Shown one piece after another: positions 2,316 through 44,433 of a DNA stretch of 51,851 bases. Made by a program: the position numbers and the translations under genes. Every line of letters starts with the position of its first letter. Positions within the stretch are counted from its first letter, which is position 1. The notes below the pieces were generated by a model. The model saw only the letters and a program-made list of their open reading frames with translations, was not told the origin of the DNA and made no database searches. The stretch lies in the IMG/VR virus record IMGVR_UViG_2923307698_000007, positions 1-51,851 of that record; one strand, 5' to 3'. This DNA comes from a virus. Its lineage: Duplodnaviria; Heunggongvirae; Uroviricota; Caudoviricetes.

Positions 2316-3713
2316 TCAGCTGATACTGATACCTGCTGTGGATTTTTTCATCACCACAACCAGCAGATCGCTGATACTGGTTGTTGGTGTCCAGTTATTC
2401 GCTCCTGATGAAGATACGGTGAATGTCAGTGTCAGCGTCCCCTGTCCGGCAGGCATATCTATAACTGAAGAAAATACGCCCTGAGCATCCGTCGTGGACT
2501 GATTAAAAATCTCCTGACCATTGTGGGTCACTCTTAACCGGCAGGTTGAATACCAGTATGACTGTTGGTTATTACTGTTGAAATTCTCATGCTTACCACC
2601 GCGGAATAACACTGGCGGTATCATGACCTGCCGGTCAAACTTCTGATCATCACTGATTCTTACCGTGATGGTGCCACTGGCATAAGTGCTCGTGCGGGGG
2701 AAAGACTTGCTGACCGTTTTGACAATATCGCCTTCAATCTGGTTGGCTGACAGTTTCCCCTTAATCTGACAGTTCTCATTAATCGTGACGTTGTTGAGCG
2801 TCCCTGAGTTCGCATTCACACTGCCACTGATATCCGCATTTTTCGCCGTCAGTCGCCCGTCCGGCGTCAGGGAAAACGTCGGGGGGTTGCCGGATGACGT
2901 GATACTCACCGCAAACAGTCGTTTCAGGAACACGTCGTTCATGAACAGCTGATTCCCCTGCGCCACAAATAACGGCGTGCTGTTGCCGCTCTCCGGATTT
3001 ATCATCGCGATACGGTCAGCCAGCAGCAGTATGTTGCTCAGTGGCTGGCCATCAGTATCCTCAATCCCTGCACCAATCCCGGCCACATAGGGAATGCCGT
3101 CTTTCGTTTTTTGAACCTTCAGCATGTACAGCGCAGCCAGGTCATCATTTGTGTCCTTCTGCACGCGCTGTATCTGCTGTATGGTGGCGCTCTGGTTCTC
3201 CAGTGTTTTGTTGACCGTCTGTGTGATTTCATTGCGGGTTTCCGTGATGCTGGTCTTCATCTCCGCCATCTCATCTGCAAGCTGGCTGTTATCTATCAGT
3301 TCCCACAACCCCTGAGCCAGATGCAGTTTTCCTATTTTTTCCCGGAAAAATTCCAGATACCCTTCACCATCATTGCTGGGCTGCCCGCTGACTTCCACAA
3401 ACGCAGATTTCCCCACCAGGTTGACGCTGCGCACGTAAAACCAGAAATCCTTCCCGGGCTTAATGTGCGGGCCGGATACACTCCACTGACTGCCGGTCCC
3501 CAGATAACGGGCAGAGGTTTCCACCTGAGATGTGTCTGCGATTTTTGCCTCCGAAAACCAGAATTCAAACTGTACCGTCGGGTCATATACAGCCAGTTTC
3601 GGGACCGCCGTTATCTGAAAATAGCCCGGTGTCAGCTCAATCTGTGACGGCGCTGCCGGTGCGGCAATCCGGAACGATACCGACGCCGGATCGCCCTGCT
3701 GCCCCCCACGCAT
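2316..3713 (-). CDS. J: Tail tip host specificity protein J, C-terminal segment (frameshifted relative to N-terminal segment)
   Basis: Translation [18 protein letters not shown]...[10 protein letters not shown] matches recalled lambda J C-terminal half. Confidence 0.8.
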
Positions 3714-5796
3714 TTACCGCCCGGACTGTCAGCCTGTAGCTCCCCGGCGCCAGTTGCGTGAAGCGGTATGTGGTTTCCGTCGTCCGGGCCGTGCTGACCA
3801 GCCGCTCACTGCCGTCATCCGCGGCCACGGTCAGGCGAAGCATAAAGCTCACGCCCTTCACCACCTTCGGCGTGTCCCATTTCGCCTGTGCCAGATACTG
3901 ACCGTCAGCTGCGCTCACCTCCACCGTCAGGTGCTGCACTGCCGGAGGGATGACGCTGTTCAGGGTGCCTGACTGCGGCTCAAAGCTGGCCCCGTTATCC
4001 ACGATGGCTTCCTTTTCCGGTACGTGCTGCACCGCCGTGATGGCAAAGGTACCGTCCGTGTTTTCCCGGATGGAAACACAGCGGAACAGGCGACGACGCA
4101 GTGACGGCAGGGAGAGTCCCCACACACCGTATGTCTCCACGCCATCCGGCAGGGTACTGACCTGTATCCGGTCCGGCGCGGGGTGTGCGGTGATGTCCAC
4201 ACTCACCGGCTTACCGCTGCCGTTAATCAGGTTCACCGTGGCGGCACCTGTCTCCGGCAGGGTCACCTCACGGTCCAGTGTCAGGGTGCGGCTGGCGGCA
4301 TCAATGGACAGGACACGTCCGCCGGTCATGGTCCCGGCATAGTCGTTATCACAGATTTCAATAATGTCACCGGGTGTGTGACGCAGCCCCTGTGACCCGA
4401 GCGTGAAATCCACCGTCTGCGTTTCCAGCAGTCCGGTCTTTATCACCCACAGCCCGGCACGGTGGGCCTGACCGCGACTGGTGCAACCGAACGCATCCAT
4501 CTTCAGCAGGTTGCGCCCGTAGCGCAGTATGGCTTCCGGGTCTTCCACCAGTTCCGTGGAGGTCTGCCAGCCGTTCTGCGGGTCGGTGTAATTCACCTCC
4601 ACCGCCGTGTGGCGGTCCTTCAGGGCGCTGAAGCTGTAGCGAAACCCCACGCCGTTATCATCCACCACCACATCGCTGTTGGTGTACGGCCACACCACAT
4701 CCGACGGGCGGTCCTGAACGAACGTCAGCGTCTGGCCGTTCCATACCGGCATACAGCGCATCGCCGAGCAGAAATCACTGAGAACGTCCCACGCCTTACG
4801 CTGTTGTGACAGGTACGCATTAAAGGTCATCCGCGGCTCTGTGCCCCCGAAACCATCCGGGACCGTCTGGTCGCAGTACTGCGCAATGGCATACAGCGCC
4901 CATTTGTCCACGTCTGCCGCCCCCAGACGTTTTCCCATGCCGTAGCGCGGGTGGGTCAGCATGTCCCACAGGCACCAGGCTGGGTTGTTGCTGTATGCCG
5001 GTTTCAGACTGCCGTCCCAGATACCACTGTACGTGCGTTTTTCCGGGTCATAGTTTGACGGTACCTGGATGATGCGACCGCGGATATGGTAGTTCACCGT
5101 CATCTGCTGACCGCCAAACTGCTCCGCATCCACCTGCAGCCCCACAATCGCCGTGTTCGGGTAGCACTGTTTCACATCGATGATTTCGGTGTATGACGAC
5201 CAGAGCGTCTTATTCTGCAGCTGGTCCGTGGTGCTGTCCGCCGTCTCCCGGACCATCCGGATGTTAAAGGGACGGGGAGGCAGATTATCCAGAATCACCG
5301 ACGCCAGGTACTGTGAGGTGGTCTTGCCGTTAATGGTGACATCCTTTTCCGTCACCCAGTTACCGTTACGCTGCAACTGAATCAGCAGTCGGACAGAAGA
5401 GGGATTACGGTCGCCCTTTGAGGTGGTCTCCAACAGTGACTGCACCCCGAAGGTGACCCGCAGGCGGTCAATGTTCGCGGACGTAATGGTGCGCGTCACC
5501 GGCTTTGCTTTCGTCACTTCCACGCCCAGTGCGGTTTCAGCTCCGGAGGACTCAAAGCCTTCAGGTGGTGTCTGCTCCTGCTCCCCGGCGCGCCAGACCG
5601 CTGTCACACCATGTATCACAGGATTACCGTCCGTGTCCGTCAGCGGGGTTTTGTTCACCAGGATACTCTGCAGCCCCTTCACCGGACCTTCAATCGGCCC
5701 TTCACCAATCGCATCAATCACGCTCATCATCTGCGTGGACTTAAGATTGTCCTTTGCCTCAACCGGCGTGTGCGCCTTGCCGCCACCTTTGCCCAT
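3637..5796 (-). CDS. J: Tail tip host specificity protein J, N-terminal segment
   Basis: [22 protein letters not shown] start at 5794-5796 with RBS; strong similarity to recalled lambda J through residue about 690; frame ends after the G6 run at 3702-3707. Confidence 0.8.
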
Positions 5797-5828
5797 TGTC
5801 TCACCCTTTACTGTGATAACTGTTACGC

Positions 5829-5860
5829 ACAAAAACAACAGGCATCCCGGAGGATGCCTG
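5829..5860 (-). terminator. Terminator-like hairpin with U-tract just upstream of J
   Basis: 9-bp stem caggcatcc/ggatgcctg at 5839-5860, U-rich tract on minus strand. Confidence 0.4.
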
Positions 5861-5995
5861 TATCATGACTGAATAAAAATTCTGAATATCTTCACATTTT
5901 CTGTACGCCCCCGTGGCAGATATCATTCCCGGGCGTTACAGTTTTTTCGGGCCAATAAAAACAAAACCCCCTGTGGTTAATCTTCATTTTCTGTT

Positions 5996-6033
5996 CCCGC
6001 AGCCTTCGGTCACTGCGGGATTTTTTCGCTTTT
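5996..6033 (+). terminator. Plus-strand terminator-like hairpin with T-run overlapping the 3 prime end of I
   Basis: 7-bp stem cccgcag/ctgcggg with 10-nt loop followed by TTTTTT at 6021-6026. Confidence 0.4.
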
Positions 6034-6712
6034 ATGCCTGCCGCCCGATAACCACCACCTTCCCGTCACCGCCTTCATCACGGGTACTGATGTCCTGAGA
6101 GATTCGCCGGGAGCCAACCAGCATTTCCCCGTAAGGCACCGGCATCGGGTTCCCCTGGGCAATCATGTTATCCAGCGAGGAAAAGTACGTGTTCTGTCTG
6201 CCGTTATCCGTGCTTTTGTACTCCGGTACTTTAGCCTTCGGGGCCAGCATCTGAGCCACACCACCCAGTATCATGCTGGCCCCCAGTGAAAACAGCATCG
6301 TGGTGGCAGAAAAACCACCGGCTGCCAGGGCTGAACCCCATAACGCCATTGATGCCCCGGCAGTGAAGAACGACCCCACGATGGCCGCCGCCCCCAGCAC
6401 AATCTGCAGTCCGCCCTTTCCGGCTCCGGCCAGTCGCGGCACAATATGGATGACCGCCCCCTCACCCAGAGGTTCGTGAAGACGGGCGTACACCGCCTCC
6501 GGTGCCGTGTCCTCACCGCGAATACGTATCTGGTACCAGCCTTCGTTCATCTGACGGCGGAATCCCGGCACCTGTAACGACAGCGCCCGGATGGCTTCCG
6601 CTGCCGTGTTCACATACAGGCTGAGGCGGCGGCCAAATCGTTGTAAATCCCCGTGAAGGCAGATACGTGCCAGTGGCGGTGACGCCAGGCTGAATGCGTT
6701 CGTCGTTGCCAT
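6032..6712 (-). CDS. I: Tail assembly protein I
   Basis: 226 aa; MATTNAFSLASPPLARICLHGDLQRFGRR resembles recalled lambda I; Gly/Ala-rich hydrophobic C-terminal half. Confidence 0.85.
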   Translation of the reverse strand: MATTNAFSLASPPLARICLHGDLQRFGRRLSLYVNTAAEAIRALSLQVPGFRRQMNEGWYQIRIRGEDTAPEAVYARLHEPLGEGAVIHIVPRLAGAGKGGLQIVLGAAAIVGSFFTAGASMALWGSALAAGGFSATTMLFSLGASMILGGVAQMLAPKAKVPEYKSTDNGRQNTYFSSLDNMIAQGNPMPVPYGEMLVGSRRISQDISTRDEGGDGKVVVIGRQA

Positions 6713-7347
6713 TTTTCGGAATACCTCTCCCGTTTACTCAGTTGTTCAGGCAGATGGTGAAGCAGCTCACCGTTGCCGCAGTAAATGGCGGCATGGTTCG
6801 GTACCGAAGCACCAAAGCAGCACAGCAGAATATCGCCCGCCTGTGCAGAGGACAGGGGCACCCGGTAAAAGCCGGTGACCGCCATATTGTCCAGGTAAAG
6901 GTTCTGACCGTTGCGCCACCAGTCATCCCCGCGATGAAAATCCGGCATTTCAGTCCCCGCCAGATGGTATGCATCCCGGAACAGGGTGTAACAGTCCGTC
7001 ACCCCGTGCTCAAAGCGCCGTCCCGTCAGGTGCGGCACGCAGCGGAATTTGTGAATGTCACCCCGGCAGACCAGCCACCAGGGCAGTGCGCTTTTTATCT
7101 GCAGCCGCCGGTCAGCCTCGCTCAGCCAGGGCAGACCACCGGGATGACTGTGGACCAGTGCCACAATCTCCCCCTGCATCTCTGCCCGCAGCCAGTCTTC
7201 CGGTGCAATACGAAAATACGCCTCCGGCTCTGCAGAGATATTCACACAAGGGATATACCGCTCCCCCTCCGGCGTGCTTACCACGAAGCCGCACGACTCC
7301 GCTGGCGCACATCGCCGGGCGTGCGCCAATATATTGCTATAGAGCAT
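6610..7347 (-). CDS. K: Tail assembly protein K (JAMM/MPN and NlpC/P60 domains)
   Basis: HSHPGG metalloprotease motif and Cys/His motifs; start set at internal ATG 7345-7347 with AGGAG RBS; 103-nt overlap with I. Confidence 0.8.
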   Translation of the reverse strand: MLYSNILAHARRCAPAESCGFVVSTPEGERYIPCVNISAEPEAYFRIAPEDWLRAEMQGEIVALVHSHPGGLPWLSEADRRLQIKSALPWWLVCRGDIHKFRCVPHLTGRRFEHGVTDCYTLFRDAYHLAGTEMPDFHRGDDWWRNGQNLYLDNMAVTGFYRVPLSSAQAGDILLCCFGASVPNHAAIYCGNGELLHHLPEQLSKRERYSEKWQRRTHSAWRHRHWHVSAFTGIYNDLAAASACM

Positions 7348-7401: not shown

Positions 7402-8406
7402 TTAGTAGTGATGTAGTGAAGGAGGTAATTCTTTGTTCTTAAGCCTTACCCATGCGGAAAGATTCGTTGGTCCGTCTGGCTCATTAATATCAACATCTCG
7501 TGTGTGATTGATTAAAACGTCTCTCGCCATTCCAATAACATACGAGAACTCATGACCGTAGTTGTAACATCTGCCGGAATAGTTCGATTGAATTTGCTTT
7601 AGCGCTGGATACAATTCGCGGAATAATGCCTGTGAGCGGTTGGCATAATCCCATAGCCATACAAGGCTGTTTGCTTCTTTTGCGGAAAGCTCGTTGGTGC
7701 TCTTCTCTTGTTTGCCGATTAACTCTCCTTCAAGCGGAACGCGAGCAGCAAGTGACAGAGCTTCGGTAAACTGCTCCTCGCTGATTTCTTTGTATGAACA
7801 CCCAAAATGAGATTTCAGTGACGACCACATGGTGATCATCGCCTTCGCCTGTTTTTCTTTTGGCAGAGACTGACCGCGACTCATGACGAGTTGTTTAATG
7901 GCTTCCTGCTGTTCAGTGGTGATTTTCCCCGGCAATGCCTTTTTAGCTTTGCGCGGGTTAATCACATGGCCTTTAGTCCAGTACTCGTAGAGCACATCGT
8001 CACACTCTTCCTGATACTGGATTACCTTGTCGCGGATTTCAGGGCGGACTTTGTTTGGTTGAATGCTTGAAAGCCAAGCCGCAAATTTACGAAAGGCAAG
8101 ACATGTCATTAACTGTTTACCGCCAGCAGAAGGTATTTCGATTTCCGAAATACCCTTGACAAACCTCTGTTTTAACTTAACAAATTGAGCAGCCCAAACC
8201 ATCCCCATACCTTCAACAACAGGCTTCATAGGAACATAAGGCTCATTGTTAATTCCAACCAAAAAGAGATTTGTTCCGTGGAATGGAACATTGATTGTGC
8301 GATCTGCAATTGCTAAACTAGTCATATCAGTTTTCTCGTGGTTAACTGGTAATTTAGAAGCCTCAATGGTTGCAGCCATTGAGGCTTCGCTGTTTTTAGC
8401 GACCAT
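7402..8406 (-). CDS. ant: Antirepressor Ant (P22 immI-type)
   Basis: 334 aa; antirepressor-like N- and C-terminal regions; ATG at 8404-8406 with GAGGTG RBS, overlapping the arc stop. Confidence 0.7.
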   Translation of the reverse strand: MVAKNSEASMAATIEASKLPVNHEKTDMTSLAIADRTINVPFHGTNLFLVGINNEPYVPMKPVVEGMGMVWAAQFVKLKQRFVKGISEIEIPSAGGKQLMTCLAFRKFAAWLSSIQPNKVRPEIRDKVIQYQEECDDVLYEYWTKGHVINPRKAKKALPGKITTEQQEAIKQLVMSRGQSLPKEKQAKAMITMWSSLKSHFGCSYKEISEEQFTEALSLAARVPLEGELIGKQEKSTNELSAKEANSLVWLWDYANRSQALFRELYPALKQIQSNYSGRCYNYGHEFSYVIGMARDVLINHTRDVDINEPDGPTNLSAWVRLKNKELPPSLHHY

Positions 8407-8569
8407 TCGCCACCTCTTCCCTAACACCTTTTGCCAGCAAACGAACAATTGCAGAGTTCAGAGATATACAGTCCATTTCCGCCAGGCGGCGAAGGTCTTC
8501 ATTCAGCCGTGATGGAAGGCGAAGGTTGAGTTTGATATTTTTGCGCTCAGTGAAAAGTGTATCTTGCAT
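8396..8569 (-). CDS. arc: Arc-like ribbon-helix-helix repressor
   Basis: 57-aa ORF MQDTLFTERKNIKLNLRLPSRLNEDLRRLAEMDCISLNSAIVRLLAKG (absent from ORF track because under 60 aa); GGAG RBS; stop overlaps ant start. Confidence 0.55.
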   Translation of the reverse strand: MQDTLFTERKNIKLNLRLPSRLNEDLRRLAEMDCISLNSAIVRLLAKGVREEVANGR

Positions 8570-8676
8570 TATCTAATCTCCTTTATTTGGTGCCAAAGTG
8601 ACGCCATGAAGGCCATAATGCCACTATTGAAATCGTATGGCAATATGGCACCATGATTTTTTTTGAGAGATTTGCA

Positions 8677-8997
8677 ATGGCCGAAAAACAAGTAAAAGAC
8701 TACGACAAGTTCAACCTCCGTTTTCCTGACGGAATGCGAGATGCTATAGCTGAACGAGCCAAACGAAACGGGCGCTCTATGAACTCAGAGATTGTTCAGA
8801 TACTGGAAGATGCCTTGAATGCAGAAAATACACTCGGGGAAATAGCAGATAAAATTAACAGCGTCTCGGTTCCGCTAAATGTTGATGCGCTAGTTCAACT
8901 TCAAGCCCAGGTTATCGCCATGCAAAAAGAAATACAGGAAAAGTTCAGAGAGCAGAACGAAAAGTTGAGAGAACTACTAAATAAAAAACCCACCTGA
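8677..8997 (+). CDS. mnt: Mnt-like ribbon-helix-helix repressor
   Basis: FNLRFPDGMRDAIAERAKRNGRSMNSEIVQILEDAL resembles recalled P22 Mnt/Arc N-terminal fold; divergent from arc-ant. Confidence 0.65.
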   Translation: MAEKQVKDYDKFNLRFPDGMRDAIAERAKRNGRSMNSEIVQILEDALNAENTLGEIADKINSVSVPLNVDALVQLQAQVIAMQKEIQEKFREQNEKLRELLNKKPT

Positions 8998-44196: not shown

Positions 44197-44268
44197 GTGC
44201 GGTTTTACCGCATACCAATAACGCTTCACTCGAGGCGTTTTTCGTTATGTATAAATAAGGAGCACACC

Positions 44269-44433
44269 ATGCAATATGCCATTGCAGGGTGGCCTGTTGC
44301 TGGCTGCCCTTCCGAATCTTTACTTGAACGAATCACCCGTAAATTACGTGACGGATGGAAACGCCTTATCGACATACTTAATCAGCCAGGAGTCCCAAAA
44401 AATGGATCAAACACTTATGGCTATCCAGACTAA
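44269..44433 (+). CDS. cIII: cIII (FtsH inhibitor)
   Basis: 54 aa [54 protein letters not shown] matches recalled lambda cIII. Confidence 0.9.
   Translation: MQYAIAGWPVAGCPSESLLERITRKLRDGWKRLIDILNQPGVPKNGSNTYGYPD

Follow-up and report, generated by a model that had tools for sequence, protein, structure and literature searches.

The 235-bp spacer between the tail genes I and J of this phage is, with a probability that we put at about 85%, a small RNA (sRNA) moron, that is, one self-contained cassette lying between I and J in the opposite orientation and representing a divergent allele of PasB and of EcOnc22/EcOnc23/EcOnc24. Judged from its sequence, the copy described here agrees with the family in position and strand, terminator stem, seed, overall homology and promoter spacing.

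The spacer and its neighbours

According to the ORF list, I and J are both coded on the minus strand of the window (the whole stretch of DNA analysed, 51,851 nucleotides), and the interval between them is delimited as follows.

6032-6712, minus strand: I, tail assembly gene of 226 aa (ORF list; stop codon TAA at 6034-6032; Pfam Lambda_tail_I at 6035-6712, E = 3e-15)
5797-6031, no strand assigned: I-J spacer, predicted from homology to the E2348/69 PP6 spacer to hold one PasB-type sRNA cassette and a J-proximal sense hairpin
3637-5796, minus strand: J (tail tip/host specificity), N-terminal frame (ORF list; Pfam FNIII-A_GpJ, Phage-tail_3 and Ig_J)

The start codon of J (ATG at 5796-5794) is preceded by the Shine-Dalgarno sequence AGGGUGAG at 5807-5800, and GpJ domains were found by Pfam in 3640-5796 and 2319-3713. 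The I stop and the J start thus bound a spacer of 235 bp, as the original prediction had it. That prediction also held that in lambda the I stop abuts the J start, which proved incorrect, as the lambda genes are separated by a 60-nt gap (15445-15504) with a sense-strand hairpin and U-tract of its own. In strain 14EC007, where the region is identical, I is annotated as 'tail assembly protein'.

Curated Rfam models at gathering thresholds gave no match in the spacer, and the same was true of related loci. At E <= 10 the only matches were to snoRNA models, all of them sub-threshold (best E about 0.06; snR67 at E = 8.8 over 5809-5887), and these were treated as chance. Since a PasB model was absent among the matches, the Rfam result is uninformative rather than negative.

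Homologous sRNA genes

PasB (pathogenicity-associated sRNA B) was described in prophage PP6 of EPEC O127:H6 E2348/69 (Pearl Mizrahi et al. 2021, PMC8550237) as an RNA of 83 nt, coded on the minus strand of NC_011601 from 1466343 to 1466261 (table S6 of that study). It was validated by Northern blot and RIL-seq, is Hfq-dependent, and forms Hfq-mediated chimeras with 37 interaction partners, many of them unlinked mRNAs in EPEC; the Northern probe spans the hairpin homologous to the sRNA terminator described below (PMC8550237). In the same genome the tail assembly gene ends at 1466255 and gpJ starts at 1466496, with PasB antisense to both. The window spacer aligned with the I-J spacer of PP6 from end to end, at a mean column identity of 87%, and the sRNA itself is 65% identical to PasB of E2348/69 and 60% identical to the Sakai copy. 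The two loci have in common the I-J slot, the antisense orientation, a CCCGCAG/CUGCGGG stem with a U-tract adjoining the I stop, the seed (UUGAUCUUC in PasB, UUAAUCUUC here), a similar RNA length (83 versus ~80 nt), and collinear promoter blocks with a CRP-like box at identical spacing. They differ in the 5' half and in the terminator loop, both of which have diverged. Because the longest exact word common to PasB and the window allele is 17 nt, the latter would escape the PasB survey of Zhu, Shabalina and Storz (2026, 10.64898/2026.05.13.724894), which used BLAST with a 28-nt word.

A second group of homologues comes from EHEC O157:H7 Sakai, in which EcOnc22, EcOnc23 and EcOnc24 were listed as orphan peaks of Hfq-CRAC, with a Northern band of ~85 nt that is destabilised in a delta-hfq strain (Tree et al. 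2014, PMC4104026, Table S2). In the Sakai prophages Sp15, Sp14 and Sp11 they lie inside the I-J spacer and are antisense to both genes. These homologous spacers share their terminator stem, seed and CRP-like box with the window; the differences are an RNA identity of 60% and the fact that no targets are known for the Sakai RNAs.

The match to EcOnc22/23/24 depends on an inferred shift between versions of the Sakai genome. AgvB1 was located in NC_002695.2 at +140 bp from its tabulated position, and EcOnc10 and EcOnc11, which lie in identical inverted repeats of 901 bp, yielded two shifts forced to sum to 275 bp (about +135 bp). PasA/EcOnc51 was ambiguous as a calibrator between shift values, PasA having a short and a long form. 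After a correction of ~135-140 bp the EcOnc22/23/24 peaks span nt ~1-59 of the PasB homologue. The uncorrected coordinates, in which EcOnc22-24 would be antisense to the hairpin in front of J, were rejected on the basis of the AgvB1 and EcOnc10/EcOnc11 calibration. PasB and EcOnc22/23/24 appear to be one family under two names, an equivalence that is stated in neither source paper (PMC8550237, PMC4104026).

Predicted transcript, seed and terminator

Conservation was assessed in alignment A3, which holds 20 distinct spacer variants, including those of E2348/69 and Sakai. The elements of the predicted antisense transcript are listed below.

About 5948-6026, plus strand: predicted sRNA of the PasB/EcOnc22 family, ~79-80 nt, antisense to the tail operon (homology to PasB)
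5977-5985, plus strand: putative seed UUAAUCUUC, single-stranded, directly upstream of the terminator (conserved in A3; unpaired in the centroid fold)
5996-6026, plus strand: predicted intrinsic terminator of the sRNA (stem CCCGCAG at 5996-6002 with CUGCGGG at 6013-6019, 10-nt interior, A, U6 at 6021-6026)

The 5' end was set by the published 5' end of PasB (+/- 2 nt), carried over through alignments A2 and A3; alternatively, the sRNA would start near 5933 if the TATCAT box described below is its -10. RNA folding gave a single-stranded body followed by the terminator hairpin and U6. Taken at full length, the sRNA folds no more stably than shuffled sequences do (z = -0.25), as is usual for open-bodied sRNAs. 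In the seed region ATCTT is invariant and TTAATCTTC nearly invariant over the 20 variants, and the PasB seed proposed by Zhu et al. 2026 (10.64898/2026.05.13.724894) is the region that matches UUAAUCUUC here.

The plus-strand hairpin folds at -14 kcal/mol (z = -3.1), one of 200 shuffles being as stable, and was overlooked by the consensus terminator scan because its loop is longer than 8 nt. Its 7-bp stem is invariant in 20/20 variants, in contrast to a loop in which both sequence and length are hypervariable. Since the stem never varies among close relatives, no covariation can be seen there; a distant relative (locus L180) has the compensatory terminator stem CCCACAG/CUGUGGG. Only 5 nt separate the end of the terminator from the I stop codon, and the length of the sRNA across the family ranges from 76 to 87 nt.

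Putative promoter and CRP-like box

Upstream of the predicted 5' end, four conserved elements were recognised.

5878-5899, plus strand: CRP-like box AATTCTGAATATCTTCACATTT (core TCTGA-N6-TCACA at 5881-5896, centre at 5888.5)
5913-5918, plus strand: putative weak -35 GTGGCA, 18 bp upstream of the -10 (GTGGC block conserved in A3 and in the cassette profile)
5921-5926, plus strand: TATCAT (ATnAT) box (AT-AT invariant in the 20 variants; informative over 68 cassettes)
5937-5942, plus strand: putative -10 TACAGT (TAnnnT in every variant), lying 6 nt before the 5' end that corresponds to that of PasB

The TAnnnT motif stands at the same position in 20/20 variants and has a high information content over 68 unique cassettes. 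The TATCAT box could be an alternative -10 of the sRNA or the -10 of a sense-strand promoter. A strict sigma-70 scan of positions 5000-7000 found no consensus promoter, which fits a promoter that depends on an activator.

The CRP-like box agrees with the 22-bp consensus AAATGTGA-N6-TCACATTT at 9 of the 10 core positions; its right half and flank are perfect and its left half-site is TCTGA instead of TGTGA. It is the sole match to TGTGA-N6-TCACA with at most one mismatch in the 51.8-kb window. Both half-sites are invariant in 20/20 variants, the central 6 bp vary, and the distance between the box and the sRNA start is identical in all 20, without indels. Counted from the PasB-equivalent 5' end the centre of the box lies at -59.5, and counted from the next purine at -60.5, compared with a canonical -61.5 (class I CRP centres were taken as near -61.5, -72.5, -82.5 and -92.5). 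The published 5' end of PasB was read from RNA-seq coverage, not from start-site mapping (PMC8550237). If the conserved TATAAT-like box 15 nt further upstream is the real -10, the centre falls at a non-canonical -44.5. This spacing, together with the fit of the published 5' end to the downstream TAnnnT, led us to place a class II CRP model, in which TATCAT would be the -10, behind the class-I-like one. The conserved block was also inspected by eye for Fur and IHF sites, and TGGCAG-N-ATTCC for a sigma-54 promoter; these readings were dropped, key bases being missing or not conserved.

From the box we infer that the sRNA promoter may be under cAMP-CRP control. DMEM is taken to contain glucose, and Spf is repressed by CRP. 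PasB was reported to be more abundant in overnight LB than in DMEM and Spf showed the opposite, being higher in DMEM (PMC8550237); the difference seen for PasB may equally reflect stationary phase.

Occurrence in other genomes

Of 5426 complete E. coli genomes, 705 contain the spacer, with as many as 9 places in one genome; it is also present in 147 phage records, most of them from Stx-converting phages. A comparison of I-J junctions in related phages, which had been proposed as a check, separated two kinds of loci: those with a window-type gpI and a detectable J have the PasB gene in 77/77 cases (the complete cassette with its box in 53), whereas lambda-type gpI loci show a gap of 59-60 nt only and no cassette in 80/80. 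Spacer length among the 77 loci is 235-260 bp in 51, 342 bp in 3 and 851-852 bp in 23, the last group carrying sodC. A scan of genome contigs for the conserved motif yielded nothing but two tiny contigs assigned to unrelated species, which are likely E. coli phage contamination.

In some relatives the spacer contains three to four tandem cassettes (up to four in loci L227, L216 and L222). In each cassette a CRP-like box and a weak promoter are followed by a variable 5' region, a seed and a terminator; at least 3 seed classes occur, and the CRP-like box forms the upstream edge of each repeated unit. Such arrays are described neither in the PasB papers nor in the EcOnc paper.

The hairpin in front of J and competing explanations

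The J-proximal end of the spacer carries one further element.

5827-5861, minus strand: terminator-like element before J (10-bp stem 5861-5852/5847-5838, loop UCCG, tail UUGUUUUUGUG at 5837-5827)

On sequence grounds this element is a separate, conserved, predicted intrinsic terminator of the sense strand of the tail operon. It was picked up by the terminator scan, has G-C pairs at 6 of 10 stem positions and reaches a fold energy of -19.3 kcal/mol (z = -4.15), which none of 200 shuffles equalled. Over the 20 distinct variants the stem is 99% paired, with one compensatory pair (C-G in 9, U-A in 8), and its G-U wobbles are legal on the sense strand only. The 4 terminator-like matches in positions 5000-7000, with 2.2 +/- 1.5 expected, are not significant alone, and the hairpins are judged real from their conservation across variants, not from the number of matches. 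Folding and conservation in the 20 variants thus uphold both hairpins that had been predicted. They had been called convergent, which is mistaken: each lies at one outer end of the spacer and points away from its middle, so transcripts ending there would start in mid-spacer and diverge. The sense hairpin adjoins J, is present in a single copy per spacer outside the repeated sRNA cassette, and ends up replaced by a different sense-strand terminator in the 342-bp variant. It is not essential to the operon, since the sodC-bearing spacers have no hairpin before J.

We consider it unlikely that the spacer holds two divergent sRNA genes, in which case a second RNA of ~85 nt would run on the minus strand from near 5914 to the 5861-5827 terminator, with AAAUGUGAAGAUAUUCAGAAUUUUUAUUCAGUCAUGA as its seed and Hfq-binding module. 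Such a gene would account for a textbook terminator after a U-rich stretch, for the stability of an 88-nt candidate (-28.2 kcal/mol, z = -3.3), for wobble pairs that show selection of the hairpin as sense-strand RNA, for a conserved ATnAT box usable as a sense-strand -10, and for the exchange, not loss, of the terminator in the 342-bp variant. However, the Hfq-CRAC list has no sense-strand peak in any I-J spacer of Sakai, the EPEC interactome table has PasB as its only I-J intergenic entry, and the sense promoter would have neither a -35 nor an extended -10. The proposed seed is better read as the CRP-like box, as it recurs with each cassette and the sense hairpin occurs once; moreover, the hairpin before J of lambda exists without such an upstream sequence.

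The sRNA could also be thought to act in cis, pairing with the I-J late mRNA of its own or of an incoming phage and leading to cleavage and less J and tail, with an effect on lytic yield or superinfection immunity. Its full complementarity to an I-J stretch of ~80 nt in the late transcript speaks for this, as do the several related spacers (up to 9) in many E. coli genomes and the precedent of STnc6030 of BTP1, which lies opposite tail genes and blocks infection by homologous phage (PMC7067206). We regard such a role as improbable, as the 37 partners of PasB, with many unlinked mRNAs among them, argue for action in trans, the sRNA overlaps neither the coding sequence nor the ribosome-binding site of I or J, and the strong divergence of the 5' halves around a retained 9-nt seed is the signature of a trans-acting seed.

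Very little speaks for the suggestion that both hairpins are alternative structures of a late-mRNA leader that tunes J, with no separate RNA gene. A strong sense terminator does lie 31 nt before the J start codon, and lambda has a hairpin at the same position; the J-proximal sense hairpin, taken by itself, could be a J attenuator. As an account of the whole spacer, attenuation is unsupported. The hairpin near I has, on the sense strand, an A-run before it and no U-run after it, so it would terminate in the antisense direction only; the original prediction had not recognised this plus-strand terminator as part of an RNA that runs antisense to I and J. Homologous spacers make a discrete antisense sRNA, folding predicted no alternative pairing between the two hairpin regions, and the relatives with sodC are again without the hairpin before J.

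A small protein can practically be dismissed, even though a 31-aa ORF (minus strand, 5987-5892, start AUGAAGAUUAAC) opens in the most conserved stretch of the spacer and ORFs of 41 aa (minus strand, 5926-5801) and 61 aa (plus strand, 5913-6098) also exist, because in related spacers the start codon of the 31-aa ORF has become ACG or ACA or is missing, its frame closes after 22, 31 or 39 codons, many spacer indels have lengths that three does not divide, the 41-aa ORF has its ATG in the variable ATnAT box, and the conserved stretch is accounted for as the complement of the sRNA seed. The original prediction had likewise seen no convincing ORF, which the lack of conservation of start codon and frame bears out.

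Discussion

Of the options first raised for this spacer, a small RNA gene is the one favoured by its homology to the spacers of PasB and EcOnc22/23/24. In the homologues the RNA is made in the lysogen, bound by Hfq and found in chimeras with tens of core- and accessory-genome mRNAs (PMC8550237). By analogy with them, the window sRNA would be a trans-acting, seed-pairing Hfq sRNA produced from a silent prophage, and its seed would pair at AUGAAGAUUAA-like sites in the targets. To judge from the position of the box, cAMP-CRP may activate the promoter from a class-I-like site, and expression of the sRNA would then be tied to carbon status. At the other end of the spacer, the 5861-5827 terminator may stop RNA polymerase that is not modified by Q before it reaches J and the downstream cargo genes. 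Antitermination by Q is an established mechanism in lambda, and if the same mechanism operates here the Q-antiterminated late transcript would read through 5861-5827.

The cassette resembles a phage moron, in a sense of the word that reportedly also follows Juhala and colleagues (2000), as it is an independent promoter-to-terminator unit between two late-operon genes and is missing in lambda-type phages; its terminator was confirmed, and its promoter is deduced from the conserved -35/-10 blocks at the published 5' end. The earlier suggestion of a remnant moron was therefore right as to the independent unit that lambda-type relatives do not have and wrong as to a remnant, given that the cassette is intact and conserved. 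A moron gene, sodC (Cu,Zn superoxide dismutase), occupies the same I-J slot in 23 of the 77 related loci. The present cassette differs from morons as described by Cumby et al. 2012 (PMC3594210) in that its cargo is a non-coding RNA, not a protein, and points against the operon.

Two other kinds of prophage RNA invite comparison. AgvB and AsxR (Tree et al. 2014) are also short, Hfq-dependent prophage RNAs at a conserved lambdoid site; their 5' region is allele-specific and their 3' terminator module is conserved. However, these anti-sRNAs are located downstream of PR'/stx and not in the tail operon, and identity with them was rejected given their moron site at PR' and their different sequence. 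STnc6030 of the Salmonella prophage BTP1 (Owen et al. 2020, PMC7067206) is likewise antisense in the tail-gene region and expressed in the lysogen, but it is longer than 700 nt, overlaps coding sequence and confers superinfection immunity as a cis/antisense RNA. The predicted I-J RNA, unlike STnc6030, is ~80 nt long, lies wholly between genes and shows the features typical of an Hfq sRNA that acts in trans.

A wider reading, which we offer tentatively and do not favour, is that the I-J junction of lambdoid prophages serves as a landing pad for sRNA cassettes that are modular and can be duplicated, that the box binds cAMP-CRP, and that the late mRNA sponges the sRNAs. If the box does bind cAMP-CRP, a prophage sRNA family would be wired to the carbon-status signal of the host. 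If the reading is true as a whole, the Q-antiterminated late mRNA, being complementary to every cassette, would be a built-in sponge that switches the sRNAs off upon induction.

The finding is real but largely explained by the known PasB/EcOnc22 family, and the basic picture, in which prophages carry Hfq sRNAs at conserved moron sites, was already known and is unchanged. Its value lies in annotation: an unannotated 'gap' of 235 bp can now be labelled as a probable sRNA gene of the PasB/EcOnc22 type, and divergent alleles like this copy are ones that the published BLAST-based survey misses. The CRP-like box, the cassette arrays and the presence of sodC in the same slot provide testable hypotheses on how prophage sRNAs may take part in host regulation.

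The I-J spacer and its hairpins

The lambda-like tail module is encoded on the minus strand of the window, and both the 235-bp interval between its genes I and J and the two hairpins originally predicted in it were recovered.

6032-6712, minus strand: gene I (Pfam Lambda_tail_I)
start at 5796, minus strand: J (Pfam GpJ domains)
5797-6031: I-J spacer, 235 bp
5861-5838, minus strand: 10-bp stem of the pre-J sense hairpin, then UUGUUUUUGUG (terminator scan)
5881-5896: CRP-like box, TCTGA-ATATCT-TCACA, with A/T-rich flanks
5996-6002 and 6013-6019, plus strand: sRNA terminator stem, CCCGCAG/CUGCGGG, then A and U6 (6021-6026)

The pre-J hairpin folds at -19.3 kcal/mol (z = -4.15) and the plus-strand hairpin at -14 kcal/mol (z = -3.1); the latter is missed by a simple terminator scan because its interior is 10 nt long. 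The hairpins had been described as convergent, but they point outward from the middle of the spacer and would stop divergent transcripts. Nor does the lambda I stop abut J, as had been stated, since the lambda gap is 60 nt with its own sense-strand hairpin plus U-tract. An Rfam scan found no match in the spacer. Three short ORFs in the ORF list overlap it and, in keeping with the view that no convincing ORF lies there, none is conserved across the spacer variants. The start of the 31-aa ORF is the complement of the sRNA seed (ATGAAGATTAAC), other variants have ACG or ACA in place of its ATG or lack that codon, its frame spans 22, 31 or 39 codons, and spacer indels are common and not multiples of three.

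A predicted antisense sRNA related to PasB

PasB is one of five prophage sRNAs of EPEC E2348/69 that Hfq RIL-seq recovered and Northern blots confirmed (Pearl Mizrahi et al. 2021, PMC8550237). It is listed on the minus strand of NC_011601 from 1466343 to 1466261 (83 nt), in prophage PP6, with E2348C_1436 and E2348C_1437 as neighbours (PMC8550237). There, 1466255 is the last position of the tail assembly protein gene and 1466496 the first of gpJ, both on the plus strand, which places PasB in the third of an I-J spacer nearest to I and makes it antisense to both genes. A distance of 5 nt separates its terminator from the I stop codon (6 nt between the last base of I and the RNA 3' end), and PasB and the predicted window sRNA are alike in position, orientation and terminator placement at I. 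The PasB Northern probe (AATCCCGCAGTGATCGCGGAGCT; PMC8550237) matches the plus-strand hairpin of the window in position, and the two spacers align end to end with 87% mean column identity. The window RNA itself is 65% identical to E2348/69 PasB and 60% to the copy in EHEC Sakai, and its longest exact word in common with them is 17 nt, so that the 28-nt-word BLAST of the 2026 survey (Zhu et al. 2026) would miss this allele. Judged by these alignments, the predicted window sRNA is a divergent allele of a known kind of sRNA, described as EcOnc22 in 2014 and as PasB in 2021, and surveyed in 2026.

Alignments A3 and A4, of 20 distinct short spacers, show the following conserved blocks in order on the sRNA strand: the complement of the pre-J hairpin; AATAAAA-TTCTGA-N6-TCACATTT; GTGGC; ATnAT; GC(G/A)TTA with TAnnnT; a T-run; then, after a very variable region of ~35 nt with indels, TTAATCTTC, the invariant stem CCCGCAG/CTGCGGG and T6-7. 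The published PasB 5' end falls 6 nt downstream of TAnnnT in all 20 variants, giving predicted RNAs of 76-87 nt. The window RNA (~80 nt) folds with a mainly open body and an unpaired seed, followed by the terminator hairpin and U6. The loop inside the invariant stem is hypervariable (10-16 nt). No covariation of this stem was found among the 20 close variants, and in L180, a spacer less closely related, both arms of the stem are changed (CCCACAG/CTGTGGG).

EcOnc22, EcOnc23 and EcOnc24 as probable members of the same family

These homologous orphan Hfq-binding sites of the Sakai prophages Sp15, Sp14 and Sp11 were reported on the plus strand, with a Northern band of ~85 nt that is destabilised in delta-hfq (Tree et al. 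2014, PMC4104026, Table S2). In NC_002695.2 all three fall inside I-J spacers whose genes lie on the minus strand, and these spacers are mutually identical and homologous to that of the window. Since Table S2 was built on an older version of the Sakai genome, two calibrations of the coordinate shift were made. AgvB1, placed by the sequence given in PMC4104026, now lies ~140 bp beyond its tabulated position. EcOnc11 (Sp10) and EcOnc10 (Sp12) lie within a 901-bp, 100% identical inverted repeat that forces their shifts to sum to 275 bp, hence ~+135 bp at 2.234 Mb, a point between the Sp11 and Sp14 sites. After correction the peaks occupy offsets ~+159 to +219 in a spacer of 240 nt and so cover nt ~1-59 of the PasB homologue, as far as its terminator; Hfq peaks are not recovered on terminators, hence such positions are typical (PMC4104026). 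On this basis we treat EcOnc22/23/24 and PasB as a single family, a link made neither by Pearl Mizrahi et al., where the PasB note field is empty, nor by Zhu et al. 2026, where 'EcOnc' is absent from the text.

Without correction, the EcOnc22-24 coordinates span +22 to +84 relative to the J start, opposite the pre-J hairpin, a placement that the calibration speaks against. For Sakai (L005, L091, L092) the offset between Table S2 and NC_002695.2 is ~+135 to +140 bp, from 1.94 to at least 2.23 Mb, and EcOnc sRNAs mapped onto NC_002695.2 without correction are assigned to the wrong feature.

A candidate CRP-dependent promoter and tandem cassettes

The CRP-like box shares 9 of the 10 core positions of the consensus TGTGA-N6-TCACA, and the 51.8-kb window has no other match of this quality (2.0 per window expected by chance, ~0.01 per 235 bp). 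In the 20 variants both half-sites are constant and variation is confined to three of the six positions between them, and the distance from box centre to sRNA 5' end is always 59.5 nt. The class I CRP position is -61.5, and the box would be close to it if transcription started 1-2 nt further downstream. A strict sigma-70 scan of the spacer region returned no promoter, which, with the weak -35/-10 elements, fits an activator-dependent promoter. The box also accompanies the antisense unit in an IMG/VR motif scan, and in the arrays L216, L222 and L227 every unit opens at its own box, with differing sequence upstream. Spf is a CRP-repressed RNA. PasB was more abundant in overnight static LB than in exponential DMEM, and Spf the reverse (PMC8550237). 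This contrast agrees circumstantially with CRP control, but the two samples also differ in growth phase. Moreover, one half-site is imperfect, the spacing is off by 1-2 bp, and the actual -10 could be a conserved TATAAT-like box lying 15 nt upstream, which would leave CRP at an odd -44.5. We thus propose CRP control of the sRNA promoter tentatively, at slightly less than even odds.

Three or four tandem sRNA units are present in the spacers of L216, L222 and L227. That of L227 (314-1230, ~915 bp) holds four antisense cassettes, each with its own CRP-like box, -10 and terminator. Their seeds fall into three classes, UUAAUCUUC, GGUUAGUCAACAUCG and CUCCUUAAGGUGACUAUUCG, the last with another terminator stem (CUCCCGU/ACGGGAG), and no Rfam family matched the cassettes. 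The PasB papers do not seem to describe arrays with three seed classes.

The pre-J sense hairpin

In the 20 aligned variants, the pre-J hairpin is paired in 99% of cells. One pair alternates between C-G (9) and U-A (8), and the other stem changes turn A-U into G-U or C-G into U-G, legal only with the minus strand as RNA. The hairpin adjoins J in a single copy per spacer, even in four-cassette arrays, and so stands outside the sRNA cassette. The 342-bp spacer variant has another sense terminator in its place, and the sodC-bearing variant has no pre-J sense terminator. Lambda-type phages carry a different yet analogous hairpin plus U-tract at the same place. In lambda the gap is L093 846-905 (lambda 15445-15504), and the lambda-type hairpin reads AAACCGCC-N4-GGCGGUUU, then UGUC(A/G)UUU; across 80 loci (L094-L173) its stem is almost invariant (three exceptions) and its loop variable. 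We know of no described function for it.

We interpret the pre-J hairpin as a predicted operon-strand terminator. The mechanism of lambda Q antitermination is established and, by that model, Q-modified polymerase would pass this terminator while other transcription would be kept out of J. That the hairpin instead ends a second, sense-strand sRNA is unlikely, given that neither the Hfq-CRAC list nor the EPEC interactome table supports such an RNA and that it has no convincing promoter.

Distribution and variants of the spacer

The spacer occurs in 147 phage records, chiefly Stx1a- and Stx2a-converting phages, and in 705 of 5426 complete E. coli genomes (median three places per genome, maximum nine), in none of which is it annotated. 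Among 80 IMG/VR loci with gpI at least 95% identical to that of the window, J was recognisable in 77, and all 77 have an extended spacer, of 235-260 bp (51 loci), 342 bp (3) or 851-852 bp (23). The 80 lambda-type loci all have a 59-60-nt gap with the sense hairpin only. The cassette is therefore accessory to tail assembly, which is the outcome of the suggested check for relatives that lack the spacer without effect.

The 851-852-bp spacers (L012 877-1727 and 22 further loci, e.g. L006, L018, L021) contain sodC, coding for a 175-aa Cu,Zn superoxide dismutase with a signal peptide (Pfam PF00080), on the sRNA's own strand and directly upstream of it. As sodC stands in place of the CRP-like box and pre-J hairpin, the sRNA there lies in the sodC 3' region. 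The J leaders of L020 and L075 have one to three extra copies of a 7-nt unit (TCAGACA / CAGACAT) just upstream of the J Shine-Dalgarno, homologous to window ~5810-5825 in other alleles. The I-J region also appears in two tiny contigs of unrelated bacteria, Asaia platycodi NZ_BAKW01000035.1 (L086, 546 bp) and Parendozoicomonas haliclonae NZ_FWPT01000051.1 (L087, 460 bp), with 99% identity to E. coli phage over 98 bp and 82% over 460 bp, respectively, most likely through contamination of those assemblies.

Other features of the prophage

J is split into overlapping frames of 720 and 465 aa (ORFs 3637-5838 and 2316-3713, minus strand) by one extra G in a G6 run at 3702-3707 (minus strand), whereas in strain 14EC007 an otherwise almost identical J with G5 is unbroken (1159 aa). 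Either the prophage is tail-defective (cryptic) or the extra G is a homopolymer sequencing error. A P22 immI-like module lies inside the tail operon between L and K (~7402-8997), with the antirepressor Ant (Pfam P22_AR_N, P22_AR_C) and, encoded on the other strand, an Arc-family repressor; an identical Arc/Arc/Ant arrangement is annotated in 14EC007. Three further features were found:

30235-30401, minus strand: STnc100 sRNA (Rfam, 101 bits)
31254-31329, minus strand: tRNA-Met (CAT)
44256-44314, plus strand: lambda cIII RNA thermometer (88.5 bits)

Proposed function

The PasB-EcOnc22 equivalence, the conserved CRP-like box, the arrays with three seed classes and the slot common to sRNA and sodC appear undescribed; they are extensions of a known kind of sRNA, not a new category. 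Homologues are transcribed in the lysogen, bound by Hfq and dependent on it for stability (PMC8550237, PMC4104026), and PasB forms chimeras with 37 core- and accessory-genome partners (PMC8550237). Like them, the window copy would act in trans through its seed. Because the sRNA and the late I-J mRNA are perfect complements, an additional effect in cis is possible, for which STnc6030 of BTP1, an antisense RNA in the tail region that confers immunity, is a precedent (Owen et al. 2020, PMC7067206).
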